Below, in pieces: positions 43,771 through 48,584 of a stretch of DNA of 64,000 nt. The stretch spans positions 18 through 64,017 of the forward strand of contig JAIQFX010000037.1 in the NCBI GenBank assembly GCA_020073005.1, written 5' to 3'. This DNA comes from Terriglobia bacterium (GTDB taxonomy: Bacteria; Acidobacteriota; Vicinamibacteria; Vicinamibacterales; CAVVIG01). The first letter of the stretch is position 1. Each line of letters starts with the position of its first letter. The notes below the pieces were generated by a model, which made no database searches, was not told the DNA's origin, and was given only the letters and a program-made list of their open reading frames with translations. Made by a program: the position numbers and the translations under genes.

Positions 43771-45120
43771 ATGGCGACGACCATTGTCGATAAGAGCGCC
43801 TGCGAGCTGGCCGGGCAGGGCCAGGAGGGCGGATTGCTGCCCATCAATCCGTTCACGGCGCTGCAGTTTCATTTCGGGATGCTGCTCGGCGTCGACGACC
43901 TCGACGCCGGCCAGGGCTACCCGCGCGGCAAGATCCGCCTCCACAACGCGTGGCTGCATCGCGAAGGCGTCGTCTGGGGATTCGACGTCGCGTTCAACGA
44001 CCGGAACGAGCTGACCGTCGATCGCGGCCTCGCGCTCGACGCCGCCGGTCACGAGCTGCACCTGGATCGCCTCGCGTGCGTCGACGTCGGCGAGTGGTAC
44101 AAGGCGCACAAGGACGACACGACGTTCACGTTCGCCGACACCGGCGACGGCGGCAAGACATTCAGCGTCCACGTCGTCGCGCGATTCAAGGCGTGCCTCG
44201 CGCGCCCCGTGCCGTCGATCGTCGAACCGTGCGCGGGCGTCGAGAACGACACCGCGTACTCGCGCGTGTTCGAAACGGTGGAGCTCCTGCTCCGCCCGGG
44301 CCTCTCGACGCCAAAGGACCTCGGCTATCACCGGCTGCGCGTCCTGTTTCAGATCGAGCCGGACAGCGCGCCGTACGCGGACGTGAAGACCGCGCGCGAC
44401 AGCATTCAGGCGCTGCCGGCCGATCAGCAGCCGGTGGCGTACCTCGACGCGCTCCGCCGGTTCGCGGCGCTCGACGAGATCGATCTGCATCCGCAGGCCG
44501 CGACGTACGACGAGCCCGCGTCGATCGTTCCGGAGGATCCGACCGACGTCGTCCTGGCCGACGTGGCCGACATCATCGTGAAGCCGACGACGGACGATGG
44601 CTGGGCGATCGTGACGCCGACGCCCACGCCCGTCGTGACGGTGCGCCGATCGCACATCGCGACCGCGACGATCCAGGAGCTGCTCTGCGGTCCGCTGTTC
44701 ACGGCCGTGAGCGGCCCGGCGCCGAAGGCGCCGCCGCCCCGCGCGCGCGCCGCGGCGGCGACAAACGGCGGACCGACGGTGAGCGACGCGAAGTTCTCGC
44801 CGAAATCCATCACGCTCCAGACCAGCCGTCCGCTCGCGAAGGCGTCGGTGGAGCCGGCCGCCTTCTCGGTGACCGAGTACGACGACAAAGCCGGATGGAG
44901 CGTCGTCCACATCAAGGCGGTCGCGAGGCAGGCCGACGGCACGATCAAGATCGATCTCAAGGAGTCGGCGTCCGCCGGCCTCGTGCGGCTGATCGCCCGC
45001 GGCACGGGCCCGGCGCCGCTGCTCGCCGAAAACGATCGCGCGCCGCTCGGGGCGCCGGGCGCCGGCGGCCCCGACGATGGAAGCGATTTCGTCACCATGT
45101 TCAGGAAGACGAGGAGCTAG
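43771..45120 (+). CDS. unassigned protein, shorter member of a paralogous pair
   Basis: 449 aa with a gaggagga SD. The N-terminal LPINPFTALQFHFGMLLGVDDLDAGQGYPRGKIRLHNAWLHREGVVWGFDV...DRGLALDAAGHELHL aligns with the N-terminus of the next gene. Confidence 0.6.
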   Translation: MATTIVDKSACELAGQGQEGGLLPINPFTALQFHFGMLLGVDDLDAGQGYPRGKIRLHNAWLHREGVVWGFDVAFNDRNELTVDRGLALDAAGHELHLDRLACVDVGEWYKAHKDDTTFTFADTGDGGKTFSVHVVARFKACLARPVPSIVEPCAGVENDTAYSRVFETVELLLRPGLSTPKDLGYHRLRVLFQIEPDSAPYADVKTARDSIQALPADQQPVAYLDALRRFAALDEIDLHPQAATYDEPASIVPEDPTDVVLADVADIIVKPTTDDGWAIVTPTPTPVVTVRRSHIATATIQELLCGPLFTAVSGPAPKAPPPRARAAAATNGGPTVSDAKFSPKSITLQTSRPLAKASVEPAAFSVTEYDDKAGWSVVHIKAVARQADGTIKIDLKESASAGLVRLIARGTGPAPLLAENDRAPLGAPGAGGPDDGSDFVTMFRKTRS

Positions 45121-45122
45121 CG

Positions 45123-48100: not shown

Positions 48101-48584
48101 CGTGCTCGGCGGCCGCAGCGACAAGACGCAGGAGGTCGCGATCATTCCGTATCCGGAAGCCGCGGCGCCGGCCGACGCCGACGGCATCATGCTGCTCATC
48201 ACGCTGCTGCAGGAGCGGAAGGCGCTCGTCGTCTTCGCGGCGCCGGCGGACGGAGGCGCGCACGTCCTCAAAGCCGGCACGCCGACGACGCAGGTCACCT
48301 TCAGCAACAACACGCTGGACGCCAAGGCGCAGGCGGCGCTCGCGGCGAAGTTGCCGGGCACGCAACCCGTCAGCGCGGTCGCGCTCGCCATGACGAAGGA
48401 CACGCCCGACACGACGGCGGGCCTCAGGCTCAACGCCGTGCCCGACGCGCTCGTCGCGGCCGGAAAAGCCAAGGCGGGCGTGACGCAGACAGTCGGGTCG
48501 TTGAGCGCGCAGGATCGCGAGGCGCTGATCAAGCTCGGGAAGAATCCGGACGACTACGACGAAGTCATCTTCGTGGAATCGTGA
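45123..48584 (+). CDS. unassigned 1153-aa protein, longer member of the paralogous pair
   Basis: The start is the ATG at 45123 (gaggag SD), inside track ORF 43950..48584 whose upstream part is spurious. The N-terminus reads LKRLNYFDGKFLRADDFDVEQQYLRQLVAQSNQGLGPGVVYGYD...GPGLAIDPSGRVLLL. Confidence 0.6.
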   Translation: MATSATSANGNSSSLIVVNDTGGVTVIDPGTPLKRLNYFDGKFLRADDFDVEQQYLRQLVAQSNQGLGPGVVYGYDTTRGSGDSIHIGPGLAIDPSGRVLLLSSAVTQSISDLIERSKPTGAARADASGKSGPGTFTDCIDVSVATPIPPTVNAVSDVYVIAICAAEALCGQTDVFGKLCEEACVTTTDKKYRLDGVVLRAIPLSLLTPFPTSKVVDITANTYLRSKIAHSWFADEALRHQDSISRAGLLSSTWCLGAGYTSACCEVPLAVVARAGATTVFLDAWIVRRERMEAPSRRYWQWKMRMRPMDVFLAQILQFQCQLANLLGGDVVPAPAGIAVADATKNLVVLDETSAFLDEVRAGLSSYRTLSAAQAVTADQPALLALSLTKVTDLQDRLKRIIVTGKTPARPSSQILIRGGVIELPPAGYLPVYNHSNVTVNDQVRALLGDGLDLRFCVASADYIAHEVEAAQHMDRISLLQGLDDPSNKPRVDVFVPDGRAIAPPSPIDAYDAFARFSTRQTGGYSARGAAREETLASGGSALHTAAIGLAQGVIQKSQTLARQYAGAKARKTPLVLNSDLATNAFVAESRTTGALFYSKVDDATAEAQKYTTLANFAAAPKAAAARAHETLDGLWLTASSAQSITGLDRGQQTAVELRAILASRPAAPDTFELTFHGTLSISSVTRGANGGLLRGLLTGIYAFGVLKEEQAVQRTTEYLITERGSWPATVRWTGDDANGVIALDVEAPLTETEFFRLTRTVTNGSKIVYELALVQRSADTGGASSFALNTVTSVPIAALLLTPDRDVVNATNRNHRYAEAGLAVVQTALIVSDPNIKAMADAQLFPPPSTAPTELTIDAVRDWVMFTKRREKRCSPGVTPAAPLATRRYRVLNVTANAIDLADKVRSDFEANRTSTNREPLANWINALIAEKQREVSLVLTYAGGSTTADTDPDLSDWRSFHPGSVIYYAAIGAVGETDEMLELNRLISVESVLGGRSDKTQEVAIIPYPEAAAPADADGIMLLITLLQERKALVVFAAPADGGAHVLKAGTPTTQVTFSNNTLDAKAQAALAAKLPGTQPVSAVALAMTKDTPDTTAGLRLNAVPDALVAAGKAKAGVTQTVGSLSAQDREALIKLGKNPDDYDEVIFVES

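Follow-up and report, generated by a model that had tools for sequence, protein, structure and literature searches.

The 64,000-nt window analyzed here (the whole stretch under study, positions 18 to 64,017 of contig JAIQFX010000037.1, GCA_020073005.1) covers nearly all of the 64,040-bp contig, which belongs to the metagenome-assembled genome of a soil acidobacterium (Acidobacteriia). It contains a complete operon of an extracellular contractile injection system (eCIS) on the plus strand, extending from ~22.2 kb to 51.8 kb according to Pfam matches. After the ATPase gene of this operon come two adjacent genes, both annotated as hypothetical, which most likely encode two co-assembled baseplate-anchored putative fibres or binders, not cargo. 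The first (LAO77_12845, 43771-45120, +) encodes a protein of 449 aa, hereafter the short protein, and the second (LAO77_12850, 45123-48584, +) one of 1153 aa, the long protein. The short open reading frame (ORF) begins with an ATG at 43771, with a GAGGAGG Shine-Dalgarno motif 8 nt upstream, and its stop codon ends at 45120. The long ORF begins with an ATG at 45123, 2 nt past the TAG of the short gene, and its stop codon ends at 48584. Since the gap is of 2 nt and the GAGGAG motif of the long ORF is inside the 3' end of the short gene, both genes are probably translationally coupled. These limits (43771-48584) and both protein lengths are exactly those given in an earlier note, which had been made from the letters of the window.

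The same note had reported that both proteins align over about 90 N-terminal residues, and this is borne out by every comparison made. By BLASTP, residues 1-114 of the short protein and 1-118 of the long one share 29% identity (E 2e-7). A Smith-Waterman alignment of the first 130 residues scores 98, far above the 26.8 +/- 4.1 obtained with 2000 shuffled controls (maximum 51; none reaching the real score; z = 17), which rules out a chance similarity of the two N-termini. Profiles of the two families (34 sequences each) give one hhalign match of 96-131 columns with 95% probability and E ~2e-8. The complete divergence that the note described after this point holds at the sequence level, where the remainders align no better than shuffles (z = 0.5), but not entirely for the predicted structures, since the order of secondary-structure elements in the AlphaFold2 (AF2) models is alike for a further ~150 residues. 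A second, weak profile match beyond residue ~130 (E 0.06) also hints at a longer shared fold. The alignments and profiles thus show a module of ~100-130 residues common to both proteins, the product of an old duplication. It spans approximately residues 20-130 of the short protein (43828-44160, +) and 27-137 of the long protein (45201-45533, +), and is a putative baseplate anchor. Both families follow the pattern P-x-x-P-x-x-x-L-x-Y/F-x-x-G-x-x-L-x-x-x-D-L/F-x-x-x-Q-x-Y-x-R ... N ... G-V-V-x-G ... G-L-A-x-D-x-x-G-x-x-L-x-L, with module identity of ~28-30% between the two families and 75-90% within each. Exactly two copies are present in the window.

Homologues are abundant, the short protein having more than 1000 matches and the long one more than 785, and their conserved parts contain no Pfam domain. 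The module profile reaches 10,791 clusters (50% identity) at E <= 1e-3, the module being N-terminal in 149 of the 150 best of them. The 364 collected family proteins with the full module fall into two length groups, of ~450 aa and ~1050-1400 aa. In the short protein, the module is followed by a conserved beta/alpha middle part with invariant cysteines, a variable Pro/Ala-rich linker (~310-335) and a C-terminal immunoglobulin (Ig)-like domain (337-445). The long protein has the module, a conserved Cys-rich core up to residue ~500, a divergent beta-rich part (~510-840), a second conserved part (840-1030) and a C-terminal region. Other members of the long family carry inserts of 120-560 aa at residue ~1050-1100, with DUF11, CARDB, MG and other Ig-like domains, which makes this site an insertion hot-spot. 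The invariant cysteines are C11, C103, C142 and C154 in the short protein, where C306 is nearly invariant, and C139, C170, C180, C184, C255, C321, C457 and C875 in the long protein, with a C-x9-C-x3-C cluster at 170-184; they may form disulfides or a metal site. Searches of both proteins against Pfam, PHROGs and NCBIfam returned nothing besides a sub-threshold match to the N-terminus of CIS13_fam. No toxin or enzyme domain was found in either family with these databases, the long family being represented by 34 members in the Pfam search. Hydropathy over 19 residues peaks at 1.2-1.6 in the two proteins and no transmembrane helix is predicted, so that membrane anchoring as in the Anabaena Cis13 protein was rejected.

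Conservation was measured per segment in 47 full-length loci. The proximal regions are 42-54% identical in the short protein (residues 1-310) and 44-51% identical in the long one (1-500), values close to those of the wedge proteins taken for comparison, Baseplate_J (46-58%) and Tail_P2_I (42-48%). Distally, residues 501-840 of the long protein are detectable in 10 loci and residues 1031-1153 in 3, while the C-terminal domain of the short protein (331-449) is detectable in 41 loci with 37% identity. Such a gradient from a conserved proximal to a variable distal part is as expected of a baseplate-anchored fibre or receptor-binding protein. The long protein shows it clearly, the short one much less so.

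The pair is embedded in a constant context. From a scan of one genome per species we obtained 80 related loci from at least 7 phyla: Acidobacteriota, Gemmatimonadota, Pseudomonadota (Nitrococcus, Aliiglaciecola, Plasticicumulans, Burkholderiales), Myxococcota, Actinomycetota (Kribbella, Nocardioides, Rhodococcus, Mycobacterium and others), Desulfobacterota and Bacillota. Their gene order is gp25, Baseplate_J, Tail_P2_I, a 541-aa protein, the ATPase, in some cases a 453-aa protein, and then the short and the long genes. The same eCIS context was found in 60-73 of the 80 loci, the remainder being cut by contig ends. When the 81 sources, the window included, were scanned in six frames with the hidden Markov model (HMM) of the module, 75 had two copies and no more, and one copy was found in each of the remaining 6, where the contig ends right after the short gene. 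Thus, wherever a locus has enough sequence, the homologues are accompanied by eCIS baseplate genes, which answers a check that the earlier note had called for, and we therefore regard the pair as a fixed component of these systems rather than a variable payload. In one locus, that of Plasticicumulans lactativorans (L077, 10001-14900), the HMM finds two module copies, and the parts compared of the tables of Nachmias et al. (see below) list three consecutive eBAP3 genes (2756756476-78); the third may be a neighbour caught by their iterative search or a protein with a more divergent anchor.

A class of proteins with these properties has been published. Nachmias, Wang, Feng, Jiang & Levy (Nat Commun, January 2026; PMC12923769) defined five N-terminal 'eCIS baseplate anchor' (eBAP) domains. 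One of them, eBAP3, has ~200 aa, a shoulder-like fold and 1420 genes; it is found in loci using a Tail_P2_I protein and was modelled on the loops of that protein, an arrangement likened by those authors to TssK on TssG in the type VI secretion system (T6SS). In that system, loops of TssG, the proposed counterpart of Tail_P2_I, hold trimers of TssK, two for each TssG. According to the same paper, several fibres are encoded in 23% of eCIS loci, several fibres per baseplate protein can be modelled, and ~90% of the catalogued fibre genes directly follow baseplate genes.

In the parts compared of the tables of this paper, adjacent eBAP3 genes are listed in Nitrococcus mobilis Nb-231 (639002323, 1238 aa; 639002324, 405 aa) and in Aliiglaciecola lipolytica (2532570853, 471 aa; 2532570854, 1415 aa). 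All four proteins begin there with 'domain3910' (approximately residues 7-137 in Aliiglaciecola), the region that corresponds to our module, after which the short proteins have 'domain1879' and the long ones 'domain4272'. A Rhodococcus sp. T7 protein (WXYH01000391.1_16) is likewise listed as eBAP3, and it represents a fold cluster of 14 members to which both long proteins belong. The same two neighbouring genes came up in our scan of those genomes (L030 and L045) and on the Rhodococcus sp. T7 contig (L068). For the two Nitrococcus genes, both lengths and the SWM_repeat match on the short protein agree with the catalogue entries compared. The window's own proteins, as well as Acidobacteriota and Gemmatimonadota, are absent from those parts of the tables. 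The orthologous pair is thus already catalogued as eBAP3 tail-fibre candidates, and the proteins of the window are putative new members, an assignment that rests on orthology to the listed genes and not on an eBAP3 HMM score. The features of the class are also found at the locus: a Tail_P2_I-type baseplate within an eCIS operon on one strand (Pvc16_N, sheath, tube, CIS_tube, GPD, Phage_base_V, gp25, Baseplate_J, Tail_P2_I, AAA and eCIS_core), and a conserved anchor with a variable distal part, the latter less marked in the short protein, which keeps a detectable C-terminal domain in 41 of 47 loci. Another class of the catalogue, eBAP5, was rejected because Pfam detects only distal Ig-like domains and no DUF6519 in 34 members of the long family.

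We conclude, with a probability of roughly two in three, that the pair represents fixed short and long baseplate-anchored peripheral proteins of one eCIS lineage, belonging to the eBAP3 class of Tail_P2_I-type systems. The suggestion of the earlier note that a shared docking module with divergent C-terminal parts points to putative fibres or receptor binders is supported by the synteny and by the orthologues listed as eBAP3. Each protein would form a homotrimer and the N-terminal module would be a TssK-like 'shoulder' clamping onto a loop of the TssG-like wedge protein. The Tail_P2_I protein (36440-38779, +) would then be the adaptor whose loops hold the eBAP3 domains, a role taken from PMC12923769. 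Each of the six wedges would bear two fibres, a short Ig-headed one and a long bulky one; both are proposed for every wedge because they are always co-encoded and because their modules have diverged to ~28-30% identity while keeping 75-90% within each family. Short and long proteins could sit on separate Tail_P2_I loops, following the precedent of TssG, which holds two TssK trimers. Contact with the surface of the target cell would be made by the variable distal part of the long protein, perhaps also by the Ig head of the short one, and would be relayed through the baseplate, leading to sheath contraction and delivery of the DUF4157-type cargo.

Structures were predicted as AF2 monomer models. 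The best-modelled part of the short protein is its C-terminal beta domain, and the only significant Foldseek matches of this model are Ig-like domains, of the surface-layer protein SbsC (E 7e-5) and of CopC-type proteins, which we take to reflect that confidently modelled domain. For the long model, Foldseek gave only spurious porin-type alignments in the PDB (root mean square deviation >20 A, probability ~0.2) and nothing at E <= 1e-3 in BFVD, so that the core of this protein, as modelled here, has no recognisable fold. Residues 631-804 of the long protein (47013-47534, +) are modelled as nine consecutive long beta strands of 10-21 residues each, for which Foldseek found only low-probability alignments with porin, OmpA and autotransporter barrels. 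This run may be an artefact of modelling an intertwined trimeric beta structure as a monomer. No beta-spiral repeat pattern was observed in the AF2 secondary structure of either protein. The earlier note had seen no fibre-like repeats, and it was correct: these are neither beta-spiral nor collagen-type fibres.

The comparison with TssK was made with profiles. Against the PDB, the module profile aligns with TssK 5Y0E, N-terminus to N-terminus, at E 1.4. With hmmsearch filters off, three TssK sequences match the module in the same register with per-sequence p values of 1.3e-6, 2.8e-4 and 0.087. When the module profile (364 sequences) is aligned with a TssK profile (112 sequences), hhalign returns 72 columns joining module positions 6-80 with TssK positions 4-82 (E 1.2e-3). 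The score of 28.0 stands against 11.8 +/- 2.5 for a column-shuffle null (n = 200, maximum 21.4; 0/200; z ~6.5) and 14.1 for the reversed alignment. With the profile of the long family alone, the best match is still at the right place (E 0.07). No similarity with TssK was found past the first ~80 residues of either protein by profile comparison, and whole-protein TssK homology of the short protein was rejected for the lack of signal outside the N-terminus. The Pfam family T6SS_VasE (PF05936) does not match either protein at E <= 1. A BLASTP comparison of the C-terminal part of the Tail_P2_I protein with E. coli TssG revealed no similarity, which is uninformative at such distance. We consider this weak and position-consistent similarity a hint that the module could be remotely homologous to the first part of the TssK shoulder, which does not make either protein a member of the TssK family.

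Several observations weigh against the conclusion that the pair is a set of eBAP3-type fibres or binders. The mean predicted local distance difference test values of the models are moderate (72 for the short protein and 71 for the long one), and in both of them confidence is low for the module's most conserved segment, where the proposed shoulder fold would lie; this is as might be expected of an oligomer or partner interface. The Foldseek search that the earlier note had proposed recovered an Ig-like domain in the short protein but no TssK, fibre or receptor-binding-protein match for either model. In the hhalign comparison of the module with TssK, the probability is ~20%, and the signal disappears when the profile of the short family is used alone. 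Profile searches of the PDB did not reach the proteins of the Anabaena tCIS, including entry 7B5H. The position of the pair, after the ATPase gene and not directly after baseplate genes as ~90% of the catalogued fibre genes, is also unfavourable, as is the conservation of the short protein over its full length, which suits a structural protein better than a fast-evolving receptor binder.

In the main alternative, both proteins are purely structural or anchoring, functionally equivalent to TssK. They would stabilise the wedge, or serve as a tether between a host structure and a cell-associated (cytoplasmic or membrane-attached) contractile injection system (CIS), in the way of TssK, Anabaena Cis13 and the intracellular CIS of the Streptomyces type, with no binding of target cells. 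We consider it unlikely, although it draws on several lines of evidence. The N-termini resemble that of TssK weakly but in the same register, the short protein has a TssK-like size and domain order (beta-rich N-terminus, helical middle and separate C-terminal head) and is highly conserved across phyla, the lineage is present in Actinomycetota, whose studied CIS are intracellular, and Anabaena Cis13 offers an example of an N-terminal baseplate-binding domain combined with a membrane anchor. However, no transmembrane helix is predicted in either protein, and the distal parts of the long protein turn over fast and gain DUF11, CARDB and MG Ig-like modules, which is typical of surface adhesion and not of a fixed partner inside the cell. 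The locus also has hallmarks of an eCIS, the Pvc16_N cap and DUF4157 cargo, and the many invariant cysteines are consistent with an oxidising extracellular setting, without being proof of it.

The earlier note had further proposed alternative attachments to the same site of the particle. On such a reading, the short and long proteins would be mutually exclusive and would give two particle types of different specificity. Both carry the same N-terminal module and multi-fibre loci account for 23% of eCIS. This arrangement is nevertheless quite improbable and the wording of the note probably not quite right: no complete locus has one gene without the other, and the two are closely linked and apparently translationally coupled, which argues for stoichiometric co-assembly and makes it likelier that the products are mounted together. 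The low identity of the modules between families and the high identity within them are as expected if each had adapted to its own docking site, and TssG sets a precedent of two sites per wedge, in line with the several fibres per baseplate protein modelled by Nachmias et al. (PMC12923769).

We regard as very improbable, and as the least probable explanation considered, that at least one of the proteins is an effector carried as cargo, or an adaptor for cargo, with the shared N-terminus as a loading signal, the 'large cargo' option of the earlier note. In its favour, PVC payloads are known to carry N-terminal packaging signals, the stretch from the ATPase to the DUF4157 cargo gene, where the pair is found, is one that often encodes eCIS payloads, and the long protein has no recognisable fold. 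Against it, the synteny and copy number are strictly one-to-one across at least 7 phyla, with the variable DUF4157 cargo further downstream, the proximal regions are as conserved as the baseplate, neither family has a toxin or enzyme domain, the N-terminus is a conserved module of ~100-130 residues with a predicted helix and strands and not a short disordered signal, this module is catalogued with fibre anchors and matches the N-terminus of CIS13_fam, and the long family, of 1153-1660 aa with bulky beta-rich domains, would be an implausible passenger of the tube lumen.

Returning to the baseplate-anchored fibres or binders, a more elaborate version can be put forward, tentatively and with some doubt. 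The pair would be an obligate two-fibre set, with short and long trimers on two distinct loops of each Tail_P2_I protein, fixed by the ancient duplication and kept in at least 7 phyla. The short Ig-headed protein would be a conserved sensor or strut, and the long protein would have, near residue 1050-1100, a hot-swappable site for the display of adhesin domains, with a core of ~500-850 residues of no known fold. If the pair does act as fibres or binders, it decides the attachment target of a widespread lineage of soil and marine eCIS; target organisms are known for hardly any environmental eCIS. The fixed pair could also be of use in engineering, as the hot-spot of the long protein, together with its conserved proximal half, suggests a site where binding domains might be exchanged without disturbing assembly.

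The remainder of the operon is organized as follows, all on the plus strand. The core (22493-33853) comprises the Pvc16_N cap, two sheath genes, a gp19-type tube, CIS_tube, a GPD hub, a Phage_base_V spike and a 594-aa protein of no known family, as assigned by Pfam. The two sheath paralogues, of 626 aa (23922-25802) and 688 aa (26313-28379), flank the tube gene, as in Afp/PVC-type systems. The gp25-like (133 aa) and Baseplate_J-like (749 aa) wedge proteins (33838-36489), assigned by Pfam and synteny, precede the Tail_P2_I-family protein (Pfam Tail_P2_I E 7e-7, NHL E 3e-5; syntenic in 64 of 80 loci). This last protein is unusually long (779 aa) and has 15 cysteines; the P2_I match covers only residues 542-658, and the N-terminal ~500 residues, with the NHL repeat match, may form a beta-propeller exposed on the baseplate. 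Between it and the ATPase is a conserved 541-aa protein (38784-40409; present in 68 of 80 loci) with no Pfam or NCBIfam match, whose position is that of the Afp14 tape measure, so that this role is a positional inference only. The AAA+ ATPase is Afp15-like (40402-42372, 656 aa; Pfam AAA E 2e-26; in 73 of 80 loci).

Directly upstream of the pair lies the gene of an alanine-rich (29% Ala) helical protein of 453 aa (42385-43746), detectable by sequence in 38 of 80 loci. This protein has no family assignment and may be an assembly factor, a strut or a fibre chaperone. ORFs of similar length with similar starts occupy the same slot in the Kribbella, Nocardioides, Rhodococcus and Mycobacterium loci inspected, with products alike in size and composition. 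Downstream of the pair are a Pro/Ala/Gly-rich protein of 399 aa (48581-49780) with a C-terminal SH3-like segment (weak SH3_3 and GsmA matches) and a DUF4157/eCIS_core protein of 672 aa (49787-51805; Pfam eCIS_core E 8e-29). The latter has EPEL/EPEI and PQ repeat linkers and a C-terminal part of ~330 residues with no Pfam match, and is likely the payload (cargo or toxin) of the system. A DUF4157 gene is found downstream of the pair in 39 of 80 loci, at a variable distance. At the other end, a gene for a sigma-54-dependent activator (20585-21997, +; Sigma54_activat E 2e-60, HTH_8) adjoins the operon directly upstream, which suggests that particle production is under sigma-54 control. Beyond the operon, a PEGA-domain protein (51840-52982, -) and a coiled-coil AAA_13-like protein (53042-54751, +) are followed by a 1659-aa ORF (56475-61457, -), coding-like by its G+C content at third codon positions (0.87) and with no Pfam match.

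Among known systems, TssK (PDB 5M30, 5Y0E, 6GIY and 6N38) resembles the pair in the order of N-terminal motifs: its W-x-E-G-M-F-L-R-P-x-x-F-Q-Q-x-x-x-Y ... W-G-F ... P-D-G-T aligns in the same register with Y/F-x-x-G-K/M-x-L-x-x-x-D-L/F-x-x-x-Q-x-Y ... Y/W-G-F/Y ... D-P/A-x-G of the module. With ~445 aa and a three-part layout, TssK also has about the length and layout of the short protein. On the other hand, TssK binds the TssL/M membrane complex, and among the large ORFs of the window scanned with Pfam no T6SS membrane-complex family (TssJ/L/M) was found, the markers being those of eCIS. Other PDB sequence searches (single sequences, both family profiles, the module profile and a Nocardioides orthologue) had no significant match and gave only artefacts of Gly-linkers or repeats besides the TssK entry mentioned above.

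The NCBIfam family NF053767 (CIS13_fam) matches the module of both families with positions ~3-88 of its 392. The window proteins score 21.5 bits (E 1e-4, model positions 5-135) and 28.6 bits (E 8e-7, 5-87), and orthologues reach 58.8 bits, with E 5.6e-16 for the Nocardioides orthologue of the short protein. All these scores are far below the cut-off of 370 bits and positions 89-392 are unmatched; the pair shares the N-terminal domain only and does not belong to the family. The functional logic would be analogous to that of Anabaena tCIS Cis13 (All3316) and of Afp13/Pvc13, a trimeric peripheral protein with the N-terminal domain on the baseplate and the distal part directed to the membrane or target. 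The pair differs from Cis13 by having no transmembrane helix, and from Afp13/Pvc13, which use an unrelated helical anchor of ~50 aa (eBAP1) on Afp12-type proteins (PMC12923769). As for the adenovirus-like shaft of that class, no Pfam or PHROG fibre family matches the pair. The only similarity to an adenovirus fibre, with the 3izo 'Fiber' chain (whole-sequence E 0.013, best stretch E 5.1), arises from short repeated G-L-x-x-D motifs and was rejected.

The closest likeness is with the eBAP3 candidates, which have a conserved N-terminal anchor followed by diverse C-terminal architectures, as in the pair, and occur in Tail_P2_I loci without a separate Afp12-type gene, with several fibres and one anchor type per operon. 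After the 2026 catalogue nothing here is unexpected, and the value of the analysis is confirmatory and descriptive. The invariant short-plus-long pair after the ATPase and coiled-coil genes is not singled out in PMC12923769, and its strict pairing, its post-ATPase position and the insertion hot-spot of the long protein are added here. So is the extension of the family to Acidobacteriota and Gemmatimonadota. A further addition is a sequence-level hint of a relationship with TssK, whose weak but register-consistent similarity would support the evolutionary link proposed between the baseplates of Tail_P2_I-type eCIS and T6SS.

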